Virus record (IMG/VR): IMGVR_UViG_648276671_000009
Coordinates: 1-4,239 of that record
Strand: one strand, 5' to 3'
DNA from: a virus
Lineage: Duplodnaviria > Heunggongvirae > Uroviricota > Caudoviricetes
Length of the DNA: 4,239 nt
A model generated the notes under the pieces. That model was not told the DNA's origin. It made no database searches and saw nothing but the letters and a program-made list of their open reading frames with translations. This document shows, in pieces, positions 1 through 4,239 of this stretch; positions within the stretch are counted from its first letter, which is position 1, and each line of letters opens with the position of its first letter. The position numbers and the translations under genes were made by a program.

Positions 1-246
1 CCGAGAGTATACTGGAAGAACATGGACTGGATAGTCGCCCATAAAGGACAACTGGTGGAGCGGTTGATGCGGCTTAAAAAATTTCCCCGAACGCTTTACG
101 ATCGTAAAAAGTTGAATATCCTGTTAAGAGTGGTTACTACGCCACACAGCTTAAACCCGCCGATGAGCGGGTTTTTTATGCCCGAAAAGTGGCACAGGGC
201 GTTAAACGCGCTGGTGGTTGCGAATGCAGGCCTCTCAGTTTGCTGA
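1..246 (+). CDS. hypothetical protein, 3' portion (5' end outside window); possibly a late-gene regulator (Q-like) by position only
   Basis: Frame 1 is open from position 1 with no in-frame stop until TGA 244-246; the track ORF 22-246 is the internal Met. Followed by an AT-rich spacer, a promoter-like element and the tRNA array, as downstream of Q in lambdoid phages. No diagnostic motif recognised, so the product is a guess. Confidence 0.45.
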   Translation, partial: PRVYWKNMDWIVAHKGQLVERLMRLKKFPRTLYDRKKLNILLRVVTTPHSLNPPMSGFFMPEKWHRALNALVVANAGLSVC

Positions 247-376
247 TTTTTTAGACAAGATTTATTTAGCCAGGCGTATCCAAAATAAAAATAATCGTTA
301 TATATGAGAATTTTTTCTTATTTTTAGAAACAAGAAAAATATATGCGGATATTTACGATTGCTGACGTTATCTTTA

Positions 377-405
377 TTGAGCTCGTTCGAGGGGATTCGT
401 ATTAT
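377..405 (+). promoter_or_regulatory. candidate sigma70 promoter for the tRNA array (possible late promoter pR' analogue)
   Basis: TTGAGC (377-382), 17-nt spacer, TATTAT (400-405); predicted start near 412, about 25 nt upstream of the first tRNA. A -10-like AATGAT lies at 421-426 in the initial transcribed region. Confidence 0.35.
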
Positions 406-436
406 ACGCCGCGCCAGCGCAATGATGCGACGGGCA

Positions 437-513
437 GGCCCTTTAGCTCAGTTGGTCAGAGCGAGCGACTCATAATCGCCAGGTCGCTGGTTCAAATCCA
501 GCAAGGGCCACCA
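437..513 (+). tRNA. tRNA-Ile2 type, anticodon CAU (lysidine type; automated tools often call it tRNA-Met)
   Basis: 77 nt with cloverleaf: acceptor GGCCCTT/AAGGGCC, D-arm GCTC..GAGC, anticodon loop CTCATAA (CAT at 471-473), T-loop TTCAAAT, encoded CCA. Close to my recollection of E. coli ileX. Confidence 0.85.
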
Positions 514-514
514 A

Positions 515-587
515 CCGCCACTAGCTCATCGGGAAGAGCGGCAACTAAATGTTGTAGTACGAGGTTCGAGGCCCCGGTGGCGGTCCA
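515..587 (+). tRNA. tRNA-like element with aberrant anticodon arm (pseudo-tRNA or non-canonical tRNA)
   Basis: 73 nt: perfect 7-bp acceptor stem CCGCCAC/GTGGCGG, D-arm GCTC/GAGC, T-arm with GTTCGAGG, encoded CCA. The anticodon arm GCAAC-TAAAT-GTTGT has only a 5-nt loop, so no canonical anticodon can be assigned. Confidence 0.5.
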
Positions 588-589
588 GT

Positions 590-665
<76 letters not shown>

Positions 666-668
666 TAT

Positions 669-743
<75 letters not shown>

Positions 744-1108
744 GCATTTGAAACAAGCCTTATTGTATTGTGGCACTGGCGTATTTTTTTATTACGTGTG
801 AGCAGGTTGTATTGAAAAAGCATTCTGTTCTCTGGCTATGATTTGAGGCCGGGTGTAGCCTCAGTGCTGATTTTTTTACGGCAGCAGAATGGTGCATTAT
901 CGGTGGAGATTTTGTATTTCCTGGCAGGGGCGGTGATGCATCATTCTGGTGTTGTAAAAGCACCGCAGAGGCGTTCCTCAGTGCGAGGGTGGTTTAAAGA
1001 GTCGGTTTAGCGGGAAACCACAGTATCCATACAGAACGGAATACTTCGGGAGGCACCCGACGCCTCGATTCTATTACAATTAAAAATTCATCCTTTGCAT
1101 TGACCAAC

Positions 1109-1132
1109 CGCCTCCACCAGGCGATTTTTTTA
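1109..1132 (+). terminator. putative rho-independent terminator
   Basis: Stem CGCCT (1109-1113) / AGGCG (1119-1123), loop CCACC, then A plus T7 (1125-1131). Confidence 0.45.
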
Positions 1133-1223
1133 TTCTGAATTCAGTTTCTCCAGGCTCGCTACGGCGGGCCTTTTTCATATCCGCGCCACGCCCGGCGCAC
1201 ATCAAAAACCACAGAGCCTTTCA

Positions 1224-1293
1224 GGGGTGAGCTTACGGGATGGTCAGTGTGACTTTCTCTGTGGGCTGGTCACCCCCGGGCGCAGGCTCACCC
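1224..1293 (+). promoter_or_regulatory. repeat-rich leader upstream of the TerB-like gene (candidate operator or RNA structure)
   Basis: Inverted repeat GGGTGAGC (1225-1232) / GCTCACCC (1286-1293); direct repeat GGGATGGTCAG (1237-1247) / GGGCTGGTCAC (1263-1273); short complementary pair GTGAC (1249-1253) / GTCAC (1269-1273). The RBS AGGA 1301-1304 lies just downstream. Confidence 0.3.
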
Positions 1294-1312
1294 ACTAAAA
1301 GGAAAAGTCACG

Positions 1313-1738
1313 ATGTTTGGTATTTTCAAAAAGAAAGCACGTAAAACTTTCACCGAAGTTAAGAAGTTTGAGAACCGCGACGCAGTGGAGGCGACCGTCT
1401 GGGGCGCGTATTCCATTGCATTTGCCGACGGCACCTGCGATGCGAAAGAAATCGCGGTACTGGAGAAAACCATTGCAGCACTTCCTGCTTTTGCGCCGTT
1501 CTCCGGTGAGATTGCACAAATGAGTGCAAATATCCGCGCCCGTTATGAAGCGTCGCCGCGTTCAGCCAATGCCGAAGCCCTCCGTCAGCTGGCTGATGTC
1601 GCCGGTACTGATGACGCGGTGAATGTGCTGTGCCTGTGTCTGGATATTGCAGACCAGGATGGCATTGGTCCGGATGAAGAAGTGCAACTCAAGAAAATTG
1701 CTCAGGCGCTGCAGTTACCACTGGAGCAGTACCTGTGA
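1313..1738 (+). CDS. TerB-like domain protein (tellurite-resistance TerB fold), 141 aa
   Basis: ATG 1313 preceded by AAAAGGAAAAG RBS. Two copies of the TerB-type helix-pair motif: IAFADGTCDAKEIAVLEKTIAAL and LCLDIADQDGIGPDEEVQLKKIAQAL. Typical E. coli codon usage; overlapping ORFs in other frames look like junk. Confidence 0.7.
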   Translation: MFGIFKKKARKTFTEVKKFENRDAVEATVWGAYSIAFADGTCDAKEIAVLEKTIAALPAFAPFSGEIAQMSANIRARYEASPRSANAEALRQLADVAGTDDAVNVLCLCLDIADQDGIGPDEEVQLKKIAQALQLPLEQYL

Positions 1739-1887
1739 AAAGTGCGCGCCTTGTGCTGGCTGCCATCCTGCTGTTTCTGGTAGTGGCGGTGGATTTCACC
1801 GGACGGCTGATGTCGGTGCTGGCAGATGGTGTGCTGGTGGCGGTGGTGCTGGTCGTGATCCGGCCTTTACTGCGCAAGCCTGAATAA
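1735..1887 (+). CDS. small hydrophobic two-helix membrane peptide (50 aa), translationally coupled to the TerB-like gene
   Basis: GTG 1735-1737 overlaps the upstream stop TGA 1736-1738 (GTGA); GGAG at 1722-1725. Translation VKSARLVLAAILLFLVVAVDFTGRLMSVLADGVLVAVVLVVIRPLLRKPE, stop TAA 1885-1887. Below the track's length cut-off. An alternative ATG start at 1810 would give a 25-aa product. Confidence 0.45.
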   Translation: MKSARLVLAAILLFLVVAVDFTGRLMSVLADGVLVAVVLVVIRPLLRKPE

Positions 1888-1896
1888 CACCACACA

Positions 1897-1919
1897 AAAG
1901 GCATCTGCGGGTGCCTTTT
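1897..1919 (+). terminator. putative terminator hairpin (first of a tandem pair)
   Basis: 9-bp stem AAAGGCATC / GGTGCCTTT with tetraloop TGCG, ending in TTTT. Confidence 0.45.
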
Positions 1920-1938
1920 ACGGGGTGTTGTTTTTTAC

Positions 1939-1960
1939 GGGCCGCTGGTGGCCCTTTTTT
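1939..1960 (+). terminator. rho-independent terminator
   Basis: Stem GGGCC (1939-1943) / GGCCC (1950-1954), loop GCTGGT, followed by T6 (1955-1960). Confidence 0.7.
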
Positions 1961-1978
1961 ATTTACAGGAGAAAAAGT

Positions 1979-2373
1979 ATGTCTGAACCCTTGTCCGGCT
2001 CCGGTACGGCTGCGGCGCTCGGTGGGGCGACGGTATTCGGGCTGTTTACCGGGACGGATTTCGGGATTGTGTTTGGCGCGTTCGCCGGGGCGTTATTTGT
2101 GGCAACGATCCACAGGCAATTTCAGCCTGGCGGGTGGCAGCGCATTTTCTGGTGTCGTTCATTATCGGCGTGCTGGGCGCAGAGGTGCTGGCATCCTTGC
2201 TGGTAAAGCATACGGAGTTTGACGGTGCGCCTGTCGACGCATTGTGTGCCGTGCTGGTTTCGGTGGTGTCGGTGAAGATTCTGTCGTTCATCCACCAGCA
2301 GGATATCGCATCACTGGTGTCCGGCCTGTTCTCCCGTCTGCGTGGCGGAGGAGGTGGCGGCAATGTTAAGTAA
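1979..2373 (+). pseudogene. class I-like holin (3 TM) interrupted by a 1-nt frameshift in a G-run near 2129-2136; intact gene would encode about 131 aa
   Basis: ATG 1979 with AGGAG RBS. Frame 2 gives MSEPLSGSGTAAALGGATVFGLFTGTDFGIVFGAFAGALFVATIHRQ and then W/C/R-rich nonsense. Frame 1 from about 2134 gives two clean helices (AAHFLVSFIIGVLGAEVLASLLV, ALCAVLVSVVSVKILSFI) and a tail ending RGGGGGGNVK, stop TAA 2371-2373. The span is 395 nt, which is 396 (132 codons) with one added base; the junction is ggcgggtgg. Confidence 0.6.
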
Positions 2374-2638
2374 CCTTCCCGGATTGCTGAATGTGGCGGT
2401 ATGCACGGTTATCGTGCTGACGCTCTTTTTTTATCGTCGTCGTGACTCCAGACATAAACCGCTGATGTCATGGCTGGCCTGGCTGCTGATGCTGCTGTAT
2501 GCCTTTGCACCCCTCAGCTATCTGTGTGGTCGCCCGTTAGCAACGGGCTGGCTGGAAGTGTTTTTTAATCTGCTGTTCTGCGTGCTGGTGATACGTGCAC
2601 GCGGGAACGTCGCAAGAATCTTTCCATTGTTGAGGTGA
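2363..2638 (+). CDS. holin-like / antiholin-like membrane protein (3 predicted TM), 91 aa
   Basis: ATG 2363 preceded by GGAGGAGG; overlaps the upstream stop by 11 nt. Hydrophobic segments LLNVAVCTVIVLTLFFY, LMSWLAWLLMLLYAFAPLSYL and WLEVFFNLLFCVLVI, with a basic C-terminus. Stop TGA 2636-2638 sits 2 nt before the endolysin start. Confidence 0.7.
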   Translation: MLSNLPGLLNVAVCTVIVLTLFFYRRRDSRHKPLMSWLAWLLMLLYAFAPLSYLCGRPLATGWLEVFFNLLFCVLVIRARGNVARIFPLLR

Positions 2639-2640
2639 AT

Positions 2641-3018
2641 ATGTCGGGTAAATTCAGATTCAGCCGTCGTAGTGAAAAAAATCTGGAGGGCGTCAAACCA
2701 CAGCTGGTTGCTGTCGTTCGCCGTGCGCTGGAACTGTCGGAGGTTGATTTCGGTATTACGGAAGGCCTGCGCACGAAAGAACGCCAGAAGCAGCTGGTCG
2801 CGGAAGGGAAAAGCCAGACCATGAACAGCCGCCACCTGACCGGTGATGCGGTGGATGTTGTTGCCTGGGTTGGCAGTCAGGTGTCATGGGACTGGCCTCT
2901 GTACGAGAAAATCGCGCAGGCATTTAAGCAGGCTGCCGCAGAGCTGGGAACTGCCATCGAATGGGGCGGGGACTGGCGGACGCTTAAAGACGGCCCACAT
3001 TTTCAATTGAAGCGATAG
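2641..3018 (+). CDS. endolysin, peptidase M15 family (L-alanyl-D-glutamate endopeptidase, T5 Lys-like), 125 aa
   Basis: ATG 2641 with GAGGTG RBS. Zn-peptidase motifs SRHLTGDAVDV, WGGDW and DGPHFQL (His/Asp/His ligands). Lies immediately after two holin-like genes. Confidence 0.9.
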   Translation: MSGKFRFSRRSEKNLEGVKPQLVAVVRRALELSEVDFGITEGLRTKERQKQLVAEGKSQTMNSRHLTGDAVDVVAWVGSQVSWDWPLYEKIAQAFKQAAAELGTAIEWGGDWRTLKDGPHFQLKR

Positions 3019-3035
3019 CCTGCAAAACATACAGG

Positions 3036-3058
3036 GCCGCCATGAGCGGCTTTTTTAT
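3036..3058 (+). terminator. rho-independent terminator after the endolysin
   Basis: Stem GCCGC (3036-3040) / GCGGC (3046-3050), loop CATGA, then TTTTTTATT. Confidence 0.65.
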
Positions 3059-3088
3059 TGCTCAAAAAAAGAAAGAACGGAGGTACGT

Positions 3089-3370
3089 ATGTACGCACTG
3101 AAAAAAATCACGGTAACGGAAGATGGGCGTCAGGTTGAAGAAGTGCATGTTCTGGGGAATATGTATCGCCTGGAATTTTACCCGCGCAACACTCACCTTG
3201 CTGCCCGGGTGGAGTATTGCCGGGATGGAAATGTGCCATGCATTTCGGTGGAAAAAACGGATGAAGCCTACATCACCACGCTGGCGGGTGACACGGTGCG
3301 TTGTATCTGTCGCGGTAACAGTAAAGCCCGGGATGAAATAGCAAAATGTCGCAACACTACTGATAAATAA
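3089..3370 (+). CDS. hypothetical Cys-rich soluble protein, 93 aa
   Basis: ATG 3089 with GGAGG at 3079-3083 (5-nt spacing). Five Cys (44, 51, 72, 74, 87) including a C-x-C; no TM segment or signal peptide. Not recognised as Rz. Confidence 0.7.
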   Translation: MYALKKITVTEDGRQVEEVHVLGNMYRLEFYPRNTHLAARVEYCRDGNVPCISVEKTDEAYITTLAGDTVRCICRGNSKARDEIAKCRNTTDK

Positions 3371-3376
3371 AAAGTC

Positions 3377-3409
3377 AAAACCCCGGCTGGGGGAACAGTC
3401 CGGGGTTTT
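3377..3409 (+). terminator. strong, probably bidirectional, terminator
   Basis: Perfect 10-bp stem AAAACCCCGG (3377-3386) / CCGGGGTTTT (3400-3409) with a 13-nt loop; U-rich 3' arm on the + strand and a T-run also follows on the - strand. Confidence 0.7.
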
Positions 3410-3443
3410 GTGTATTCTGACCTTGAGTAAGGCAAGGAAGAAC

Positions 3444-3626
3444 ATGGAGAAGTATAAACGAATTCTGTTGAGGTTGACTATGAAAAACGGCCTTGAATTG
3501 AAAGCGCCTGTAACTGATGACATCAGCAGAGCGGTGGCTTTTGCTATTAAGTGGGTGGCGGTTGGCATCGCCGTGTCTCCGATGCTGTATGGGCTGGCAA
3601 AATTGATTGTTGCTCTGAAATCGTGA
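3444..3626 (+). CDS. small membrane protein with C-terminal TM helix, 60 aa (alternative start ATG 3480 gives 48 aa)
   Basis: ATG 3444 after AAGGAAG; the alternative ATG 3480 follows GAGG with 6-nt spacing. Hydrophobic C-terminus AVAFAIKWVAVGIAVSPMLYGLAKLIVAL. Stop TGA 3624-3626 is 8 nt before the next start. Confidence 0.5.
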   Translation: MEKYKRILLRLTMKNGLELKAPVTDDISRAVAFAIKWVAVGIAVSPMLYGLAKLIVALKS

Positions 3627-3634
3627 GTGGTGAT

Positions 3635-3817
3635 ATGACGCGAAAACACTGGACACACAGAATGCCGCGAACGGCGGCGAAATGGGCACTGGTAGCGATA
3701 CTGCTGCCTTTTTTATTGGTGGGGTGCGTCAGCCTGGATAAGGCGCGTCAGGTTATTCACATAGCAGAGCAGGTCTGCGAAATTGTCGACAGTGTCCGGC
3801 AGTGTATGCAGAACTGA
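3635..3817 (+). CDS. small predicted lipoprotein, 60 aa precursor with about 30-aa mature part (alternative start ATG 3662)
   Basis: Signal peptide with positive n-region, hydrophobic core WALVAILLPFL and lipobox LVGC; mature part CVSLDKARQVIHIAEQVCEIVDSVRQCMQN has 3 Cys and is not proline-rich, so unlike Rz1. Confidence 0.6.
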   Translation: MTRKHWTHRMPRTAAKWALVAILLPFLLVGCVSLDKARQVIHIAEQVCEIVDSVRQCMQN

Positions 3818-3829
3818 ACGCCTGTGAGC

Positions 3830-3889
3830 GCAGAATATTTTGCTGAAAAATGTCGGTGATTACGCTGTCCGGAAAGCATGAAATTCTGC
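3830..3889. repeat. imperfect 15-nt inverted repeat separated by about 30 nt (candidate operator or RNA stem-loop)
   Basis: GCAGAATATTTTGCT (3830-3844) pairs with AGCATGAAATTCTGC (3875-3889) at 13 of 15 positions. Confidence 0.4.
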
Positions 3890-3987
3890 ATTTGTGGTCA
3901 TTCAATAAAATAAATTCTTTCTGCTGCTGTAAATACACAAATGTGAACCGAACCCGGTGCGGCGACGGGCTTCGATATGAGGAGACG

Positions 3988-4239
3988 ATGATGGAAAAAA
4001 CAGAAAACAAACCGATTGTAATTGGTGCTGATGCTGCTCCGTTTAAGTTTGAGTTGTCTCAACTGGTGGAGATGCGCATCAGTGATGAATGGGGTGAGGT
4101 TAAAGCCCGCGCGCAGTATGCGGATGGCGAAAACCAGTACTTACTCCACTACAAAGCTGCTGATGGTCGCGCCACGACGGAGTGGTTTGGTGAGTCAATG
4201 CTGGAAGCAACAGAAGATGATGATCATCCGGGCTGGTCC
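3988..4239 (+). CDS. hypothetical acidic protein, N-terminal 84 aa (3' end outside window)
   Basis: ATGATG 3988-3993 preceded by GAGGAG; frame open to the window end. Begins MMEKTENKPIVIGADAAPFKFELSQLVEMRISDEWGEV. Absent from the track because no stop is reached. Not similar to lambda Nu1 as I recall it. Confidence 0.6.
   Translation, partial: MMEKTENKPIVIGADAAPFKFELSQLVEMRISDEWGEVKARAQYADGENQYLLHYKAADGRATTEWFGESMLEATEDDDHPGWS

Follow-up and report, generated by a model that had tools for sequence, protein, structure and literature searches.

To our knowledge, disruption of the outer membrane (OM) is the least understood step in the lysis of Gram-negative bacteria by phages, and only the spanins and one disruptin have been demonstrated to accomplish it. 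About 13–15% of phages have no assigned mechanism for this step. The present work concerns a lipoprotein of 60 amino acids (aa) encoded next to the lysis genes in a stretch of 4,239 nucleotides (nt) from a tailed virus (Caudoviricetes; IMG/VR record IMGVR_UViG_648276671_000009, positions 1 to 4,239), which at its full length is referred to below as the window. Its sequence is identical to part of the Escherichia coli TA280 contig GL884382.1 (positions 6340–10578 of our locus L097), and it shows about 90% DNA identity to the late region of the Stx2e phage phiP27 and many E. coli prophages.

Of the described systems, the closest to this locus are the two-component spanins, such as lambda Rz/Rz1 and the pair of phages mEp390 and HK639, where an inner membrane protein (i-spanin), with an N-terminal transmembrane domain (TMD) and a periplasmic helical domain, and an OM lipoprotein (o-spanin) reach a combined length that spans the periplasm. 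The colicin lysis proteins, small lipoproteins (mature length about 28–33 aa) that are produced just before breakdown of the cell envelope and permeabilise the OM in a PldA-dependent manner, and a single disruptin also merit comparison. A published spanin census (Kongari et al., 2018; PMC6139136) lists phage phiP27 with a separated two-component spanin, comprised of an o-spanin at 20706–20861 and an i-spanin at 20348–20542; with 62 periplasmic residues this pair is the shortest in the census, whose range is 62–300. I-spanins with a C-terminal TMD are explicitly admitted by these authors.

The phiP27 o-spanin of the census is the ortholog of the window lipoprotein (82% identity). The protein is thus not unrecognised, and in this a preliminary description of the window has to be amended, although the i-spanin with which the ortholog was paired looks spurious. 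We have found no description of this lipoprotein in the literature beyond the 2018 census. The comparisons presented here indicate that the lipoprotein, whose family already carries a label, stands alone, without an i-spanin, and it is best filed among the phage OM-disruption genes as an o-spanin-like lipoprotein of this kind. We consider it possible, with a probability of roughly 45%, that the lipoprotein carries out the OM step of lysis on its own, without any phage-encoded i-spanin. This reading is based upon the coupling of its gene to the lysis genes, its equivalence in position to spanins, its decay in the company of Rz/Rz1 and the purifying selection acting upon it.

Sequence characteristics of the lipoprotein

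The gene for the lipoprotein and its lipobox are located as follows:

3635–3817, plus strand: 60-aa prolipoprotein (phrog_7528, E = 6.5e-34), signal peptide residues 1–30, mature part 30 aa
3716–3727, plus strand: lipobox L28-V-G-C31, within the lipoprotein gene 3635–3817

The signal peptide consists of an unusually long basic n-region (MTRKHWTHRMPRTAAK) followed by a hydrophobic core, and it provides the sole hydrophobic span of the protein (residues 13–37), the C-terminus being polar. The residue at position +2 after the lipobox Cys is Val, Ala or Thr across the family and never Asp. According to the Lol sorting rule, a +2 residue other than Asp predicts OM localisation, and the lipoprotein is therefore predicted to reside in the OM. 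Its mature part is strongly amphipathic (hydrophobic moment 0.53–0.60 over 18 residues), and in the AlphaFold2 model residues 12–59, signal peptide included, form one continuous helix (pLDDT 79), a result that is informative on helicity only.

Conservation of the lipobox Cys, C48 and C57 extends to the most remote relatives; all relatives are about 50–70 aa long and retain the lipobox and two further Cys spaced 9–10 residues apart. The family is narrow: nearly all of its 114 clusters at 90% identity name E. coli as their source, and Salmonella enterica, Citrobacter freundii and other Escherichia account for a few. When 1.84 billion representatives were searched with a profile, 22 proteins were retrieved, every one of the ~60-aa type, and no longer, spanin-like relative was among them. 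The ratio of nonsynonymous to synonymous substitutions (dN/dS; all such values given here are pooled pairwise estimates) is 0.175 for the whole lipoprotein and 0.127 for its mature part. As PHROG families are matched and dN/dS is low both for the lipoprotein and for the small membrane protein TM60 encoded just before it, these two are real genes and not chance open reading frames (ORFs). At positions 3752–3769 of the window, nine substitutions are found within 18 nt of the mature part, giving QVIHIAEQ in place of QLFDTASQ, with the pattern of hydrophobic and polar residues kept. This patch looks to be derived from a diverged allele; compensation of a frameshift was ruled out as its origin, the substitutions being clustered without any indel.

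When compared with known o-spanins, the lipoprotein is likewise of the OM type (lipobox, no Asp at +2), has conserved periplasmic cysteines and is encoded next to the lysis cassette. However, its mature length of 30 aa is below that of Rz1 (40 aa) and of the mEp390 o-spanin (~56 aa), it lacks proline and is predicted to be helical throughout, and its alignment by hhalign with the mEp390-type o-spanin profile had a probability of only 2%. It also differs from the unimolecular spanin (u-spanin) T1 gp11, which needs a C-terminal TMD in addition to the N-terminal lipobox. In size it falls in the class of the colicin lysis proteins, or bacteriocin release proteins, whose precursors of about 45–60 aa yield mature lipopeptides of about 28–30 aa, and the lipobox of the ColE1 lysis protein is likewise LVGC. 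However, with the ColE1 protein only the signal peptide and lipobox align in BLASTP, 40 members of the lipoprotein family gave no Pfam match to the colicin lysis family (Lysis_col, PF02402) at E ≤ 10, and in contrast to these proteins the lipoprotein is helical and amphipathic, has two extra Cys and is encoded in a phage lysis cassette instead of a colicin operon. The disruptin gp28 of phage phiKT, a protein of 56 aa that takes over the role of spanins in disrupting the OM in a coliphage without them (bioRxiv 10.1101/515445), resembles the 30-aa mature lipoprotein in being a small, predicted amphipathic helix. The two are not homologous, and whereas gp28 is cationic and has neither signal peptide nor lipid anchor, the lipoprotein has a net charge of -1 and is predicted to be lipid-anchored via the lipoprotein export pathway.

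Gene context and distribution of the lipoprotein

The context of the gene was examined in a lipoprotein-seeded sample of 80 IMG/VR loci and in a holin-seeded sample, unbiased with respect to the lipoprotein, of another 80 IMG/VR loci; its prevalence was determined in 5426 complete E. coli genomes. In all 80 lipoprotein-seeded loci the gene was found 3' of both holins and the endolysin (M15 or GH108). The gene directly preceding it varied, as listed below, where TM60 is the 60-aa tail-anchored protein of the window, TM50 its 50–57-aa variant and TM44 a further transmembrane (TM) protein of 44 aa:

M15 endolysin: 28 loci, gap of 14 nt
TM50: 32 loci, gap of 1 nt
TM44: 15 loci, gap of 4 nt
TM60: 1 locus, gap of 7 nt
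GH108 endolysin: 1 locus, overlap of 4 nt
Other: 2 loci, one with a minus-strand ORF at 54 nt and one with M15 at 498 nt

Whatever gene precedes it, the sequence of the mature lipoprotein is essentially constant, showing no covariation with whether a TM gene is present or with its type. Since the preceding gene varies in this manner, and since the TM family also accompanies Rz/Rz1 (see below), the lipoprotein represents the conserved element and the TM protein is optional. Judging from these loci, the lipoprotein gene is conserved as the last member of a phiP27-type cassette consisting of Phage_holin_8, Phage_holin_3_7, the endolysin and the lipoprotein, and the arrangement of the genes shows an apparent transcriptional as well as translational coupling of the lipoprotein to the lysis genes.

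In the holin-seeded sample, the lipoprotein was present in 72 of the 80 loci; three were too short to tell, four had nothing in its place and one (L141) carried Rz with an embedded Rz1. The numbers of complete E. coli genomes with the lipoprotein gene (352) and with the Phage_holin_3_7 gene (361) are similarly close. The lipoprotein is accompanied by at least four types of small terminase and is found with the myovirus-type virion module of phiP27 as well as with lambda-like packaging and head modules. This linkage to lysis genes across different virion modules argues against a receptor-specific exclusion function.

Exchange of the lipoprotein for Rz/Rz1 and its decay

In three loci, L141 and the prophages of E. 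coli strains E10 (L178) and EC9682 (L179), the holins and M15 are 86–97% identical to those of the window, and they are accompanied by a canonical Rz with embedded Rz1. In L141, as in the two E. coli genomes, Rz starts 15 nt after the M15 stop, while in the compact cassettes the lipoprotein starts 14 nt after that stop. Among the complete E. coli genomes, the M15-Rz/Rz1 layout occurs with two different Rz alleles, identity of the holins and M15 to those of the window being 86–95%. Rz/Rz1 and the lipoprotein are thus naturally interchangeable in near-identical cassettes. In more distant two-holin cassettes (phages mEp390, HK639, Chris1 and 118970_sal3; holin identity ~40–45%) the lipoprotein's slot is also filled by spanins, which in the first three are a small pair consisting of a 91-aa i-spanin and an overlapping o-spanin of ~75 aa, and in 118970_sal3 a 130-aa Rz-like gene. 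By gene order, the lipoprotein is shown to occupy what would be the spanin slot, which for the two-component spanins is likewise located immediately 3' of the endolysin, ahead of bor or the terminase. In loci of the L016 type, bor, a separate gene of 97 aa, lies on the opposite strand just 3' of the lipoprotein, as it does after lambda Rz/Rz1; the lipoprotein and lambda Bor are not homologous.

Remnants of the lipoprotein gene were observed in several prophages with Rz/Rz1. In GER2 (L006 3986–4171) and in the O104:H4 Stx2a prophage (L177 3017–3178), where the order of the cassette is S-R-TM50-Rz/Rz1, a lipoprotein pseudogene with four in-frame stops is present. Together with a phrog_1935 remnant, it is located between an ais-like gene and the terminase, in the latter case in a prophage of the outbreak type, and this region looks like the scar of an ancestral phiP27-type module. 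In strain E10 the lipoprotein gene has lost its first 14 codons, and in L141 and EC9682 it is absent. In the Rz/Rz1-bearing relatives examined, the lipoprotein is thus shown, on sequence comparison, to be absent, truncated or pseudogenised.

The association with the holins could also be read in another way, viz. that the lipoprotein is a regulator acting at the periplasmic face of the two-holin system, in lysis timing or in an antiholin-like manner, instead of disrupting the OM. Intact lipoprotein is found almost only with the Phage_holin_8/Phage_holin_3_7 pair, even where the endolysin has switched from M15 to GH108, as this explanation would predict. However, the lipoprotein is targeted to the OM by the +2 rule whereas holins are inner membrane proteins, more remote versions of the holin pair work with ordinary spanins and without such a lipoprotein, and in the same cassette it is Rz/Rz1 that substitutes for it. 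We attach very little probability to a regulatory role.

Search for an i-spanin partner and the small membrane protein TM60

A cognate i-spanin was not found in the window, the TA280 flanks, the whole phiP27 genome or the compact cassettes. Within the window, 6.3 kb upstream of it and 3.2 kb downstream to the end of the contig, neither an ORF of i-spanin architecture nor another lipobox ORF was detected, tblastn searches with the spanins of lambda, GER2, 118970_sal3 and mEp390 gave no match, and the window and available TA280 flanks contain no u-spanin. The absence of canonical spanins noted in the preliminary description, which had suggested a search downstream, thus extends to both flanks. 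No canonical spanin was revealed by a scan of the 42.6-kb phiP27 genome; its late region contained no other lipoprotein gene, and in the vicinity of the lysis genes there was no credible candidate for a type II membrane protein.

The i-spanin listed for phiP27 is a 64-aa, TTG-initiated ORF that runs antisense to an unannotated 90-aa ORF on the minus strand (L091 20332–20604). The minus-strand ORF is intact, at 45% identity, in loci L072, L172 and L162, where the plus-strand frame is interrupted by a stop and contains an indel. Only about 5 of the approximately 160 loci examined contain the segment, and it is missing from the window. Hence, the published phiP27 i-spanin appears to be an artefact, the antisense shadow of a conserved ORF.

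The gene preceding the lipoprotein in the window, from which it is separated by a gap of 8 nt, is the following:

3444–3626, plus strand: TM60, 60-aa tail-anchored membrane protein (phrog_1115, E = 9e-42), sole hydrophobic span residues ~27–58

The dN/dS of 0.36 points to purifying selection on this gene. Its N-terminus is basic (net +3) and is predicted to be cytoplasmic (N-in), leaving 2–3 residues in the periplasm. Members of the TM60/TM50 family precede the lipoprotein in about 50 of the 80 lipoprotein-seeded loci and are missing from about 30. They are also found in lambdoid phages with canonical spanins, located 1 nt 5' of Rz in GER2 (L006 2630–2782) and in the O104:H4 Stx2a prophage (L177 1643–1795), and in PhiR5_2 (L003 4043–4371) the interval from lysozyme R to Rz contains both TM60 and a 43-aa TM gene. 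TM50/TM60, at times together with a TM protein of 43–44 aa, would thus represent a recurrent, uncharacterised member of lambdoid lysis cassettes, and in the loci compared TM60 is an optional accessory small membrane protein which can accompany either type of OM-disruption gene. As an i-spanin, TM60 was ruled out by its optional presence, predicted N-in topology and co-occurrence with Rz/Rz1 elsewhere. The preliminary description had viewed TM60 and the lipoprotein as a pair; their adjacency holds, whereas a functional unit is contradicted by the 28 of 80 loci where M15 directly precedes the lipoprotein and by the presence of TM60/TM50 before Rz/Rz1. Its observation that these proteins (60 aa for TM60, 30 aa for the mature lipoprotein) are too short to bridge the periplasm is borne out. 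By description, TM60 may be likened to Lcc6 (65 aa) of LambdaSo and to the Mu releasin gp25, all of them being very small, lysis-associated, single-TM proteins whose soluble part is mostly cytoplasmic; however, in Lcc6 the TM segment is N-terminal and the gene lies far from the lysis genes, whereas TM60 has a C-terminal anchor and is encoded inside the cassette.

These results also bear on whether the lipoprotein is a genuine o-spanin working with a partner that has escaped recognition, such as TM60, TM50 or TM44, one of the holin-like proteins or a host envelope protein. The cataloguing of its ortholog as the o-spanin of phiP27 and the acceptance of i-spanins with a C-terminal TMD (PMC6139136) would be in keeping with this, as would its periplasmic cysteines, conserved as in most spanins, and the coupled small membrane protein upstream in about 60% of the loci. 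We nevertheless regard such a partner as improbable. The catalogued i-spanin is antisense to a conserved ORF, is interrupted in relatives and is rare. No small TM gene intervenes between M15 and the lipoprotein in 28 of the 80 loci, and where one does, the mature lipoprotein does not co-vary with it. With its predicted N-in topology TM60 would expose hardly any residues to the periplasm, and even if it were N-out, 29 plus 30 residues would be far below known spanin lengths. As to the holins, their homologs in mEp390 and HK639 occur alongside complete spanins.

The post-endolysin slot as an insertion hotspot

A hotspot for morons is known to exist between the lysis genes and the terminase, so that position alone is no proof of a function in lysis. 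In the slot after the endolysin, the genes cys93, KilA-N, those for the LT-II toxin, an ais-like gene and bor have all been observed. It could be proposed that the lipoprotein is itself a moron unrelated to lysis, for instance an Llp- or Cor-like lipoprotein that is expressed late and masks receptors or excludes superinfecting phages, or a host-fitness factor, and that phiP27-type phages are truly spanin-less. Besides the hotspot, this proposal can draw upon the cassettes that lack the lipoprotein and upon its likeness, as a small, Cys-containing protein with predicted OM targeting, to Llp and Cor. It can also draw upon the failure to relate the lipoprotein to any known lysis protein by Pfam (E ≤ 10, 40 members), NCBIfam, hhalign or BLASTP.

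Four loci (L109, L119, L134 and L151) encode both holins together with an M15 whose C-terminus deviates from the usual one (…FQLRR), with neither lipoprotein nor spanin between M15 and the terminase; these are either defective or genuinely without an OM-disruption gene. Likewise, in two LT-II prophages, Rac-SA53 (L089 3916–5056) and SerU-LTIIb (L092 5219–6368), the heat-labile enterotoxin genes directly follow the endolysin of the two-holin cassette in the lipoprotein's place, and neither a spanin nor the lipoprotein is present. The lipoprotein is therefore dispensable, at least for persistence of the prophage.

A moron unrelated to lysis nevertheless seems unlikely to us. With at least four terminase/virion types represented, the lipoprotein gene stays with the holin pair and not with tail or receptor-binding genes, whereas Cor and Llp are encoded next to such genes, are linked to a receptor specificity and are expressed in the lysogen or early. 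It has no promoter of its own and lies between -4 and +14 nt from the preceding late lysis gene, except in the two loci with distances of 54 and 498 nt. Further, Rz/Rz1 replaces it in its slot, it is a pseudogene in Rz/Rz1-bearing prophages, and it has no match in PADLOC. For its linkage to the holin pair and not to a virion or tail module, its coupling to late lysis genes and its decay with Rz/Rz1, superinfection exclusion is disfavoured among the options raised in the preliminary description, and that of a non-canonical OM disruptor or lysis lipoprotein is the best supported.

The dispensability of the lipoprotein, its lack of recognisable relationship to known lysis proteins and the ambiguity of its position all weigh against an OM-lytic role as such, and to these several other points must be added. 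The role in lysis proposed here is drawn entirely from comparative genomics, and the patterns of swap and decay could also have arisen through a moron being lost neutrally following recombination. The negative net charge of the mature part is unlike that of the cationic disruptin. Lambda Rz1 alone is non-functional, and with a mature part of 30 aa and no i-spanin, the lipoprotein cannot work in a spanin-like manner.

Proposed mode of action

If the lipoprotein does carry out the OM step, its long basic signal peptide and LVGC lipobox (Val at +2) would lead it through processing by Lgt, LspA and Lnt and then, via Lol, into the inner OM leaflet, where it would expose a strongly amphipathic helix of 29 residues whose two conserved cysteines might form disulfide dimers or a hairpin. 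Once peptidoglycan has been removed by the action of holin and endolysin, the anchored amphipathic peptide could destabilise the OM without bridging the two membranes. Its mode of action would then be that of a tethered, disruptin-like peptide or of a lipopeptide resembling the colicin lysis proteins, and not the bridging and fusion of the spanin type. Any specific biophysical mechanism is less probable than the role itself. We put forward only tentatively, as somewhat doubtful at present, that a lipid-anchored amphipathic peptide of 30 residues with no inner-membrane partner suffices for the OM step, which would make it a third class of OM disruption beside spanins and the disruptin.

Other features of the window and its flanks

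The gene order in the window is three tRNAs, a TerB/TciA-like gene, a DUF3927/TciB-like gene, Phage_holin_8, Phage_holin_3_7, M15, a 93-aa ORF, TM60, the lipoprotein and phrog_1935. All elements of the cassette reported in the preliminary description are present where it had placed them. The features other than TM60 and the lipoprotein are:

1979–2373, plus strand: Phage_holin_8-type holin, disrupted (N-terminal fragment 1979–2206; C-terminal frame 2134–2373); PF16931 and phrog_198 match both halves
2363–2638, plus strand: second holin-like gene, Phage_holin_3_7, with three TM segments (PF05449, E = 1e-22; phrog_217, E = 7.5e-39)
2641–3018, plus strand: soluble M15 endolysin of the L-Ala-D-Glu type, Peptidase_M15_4 (PF13539, E = 5e-12; phrog_465, E = 6e-75)
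3033–3053, plus strand: terminator-like hairpin and T-run after the endolysin
3089–3370, plus strand: 93-aa ORF with five Cys (PHROG match phrog_33497; dN/dS 0.17)
3387–3403, plus strand: terminator-like hairpin after the 93-aa ORF
3988–4239, plus strand: phrog_1935 gene (PHROG match), no TM segment; the window copy ends early (…HPGWS)

The break in the first holin is a 1-nt deletion (a missing G) near position 2110, as seen in a DNA alignment with the intact genes of STEC313, phiP27 and phi1575, the intact orthologs being 130 aa long. As the first holin is frameshifted, the TA280 lysis cassette may no longer be fully functional. The start of the second holin gene overlaps the end of the first by 11 nt. 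No signal, signal-arrest-release (SAR) sequence or hydrophobic N-terminus was found in the M15 endolysin of the window. The dN/dS values are 0.10 for M15 and 0.23–0.30 for the holins. The 93-aa Cys-rich ORF, which is flanked by the two terminator-like hairpins, occurs in only a minority of related loci and has no match in Pfam, NCBIfam or PADLOC; it is a variable, moron-like insert outside the conserved cassette.

Upstream of the lysis genes, a tRNA cluster is present at 437–743, where ARAGORN calls four tRNAs (Met, Phe with anticodon AAA, Thr and Gly) and Rfam at its gathering threshold only three; the ARAGORN tRNA-Phe(aaa) at 515–587 is probably a degenerate tRNA remnant. It is followed at 1313–1887 by the TerB/TciA-like (141 aa) and DUF3927/TciB-like (50 aa) genes, which overlap by 4 nt. 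The window shares the position of these two genes, just 5' of the lysis cassette, with many related loci, among them that of the distant phage LMessi, and neither gene has a match in PADLOC. Outside the window, between Q and the tRNAs, the minus strand (L097 5087–5533) carries a gene for a 148-aa lipoprotein in a moron-like position 3' of the Q antiterminator gene.

Downstream, the phrog_1935 region is tandemly duplicated in the source contig (L097 10294–10572 and 10969–11256), the first copy stopping at the end of the window. 3' of the duplication, a gene for a 736-aa DUF1737/SASA esterase is present instead of the terminase, and then the contig ends; this downstream junction is shared by no complete E. 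coli genome. In view of the frameshifted first holin, the duplicated phrog_1935 and the esterase gene in the terminase's place, the TA280 prophage may be rearranged or defective, though its lipoprotein ORF is intact. Among the related loci, PP818812.1 (L004), named 'Actinobacillus phage vB_Apl-pPE4' and assigned to Actinobacillus pleuropneumoniae, has about 90% DNA identity to the E. coli prophage region of the window, and this host assignment looks doubtful.

Biological significance

The phiP27-type cassette is common in E. coli, being present in about 350 of the 5426 complete genomes (~6%), including Stx2e, Stx2k and other toxin-converting prophages, and it drives the release of toxin-converting phages with Stx2e, Stx2k or LT-II neighbours. 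Because Rz/Rz1 naturally replaces the lipoprotein in its slot, the hypothesis that the latter acts in lysis lends itself to a direct test by complementation in the established lambda RzamRz1am system. Should the lipoprotein not act alone in lysis, phiP27-type phages would provide a clean E. coli model of truly spanin-less lysis. If it does, it would constitute a minimal and genetically tractable OM-lytic lipopeptide, and the entry for phiP27 in the reference spanin census would be corrected.

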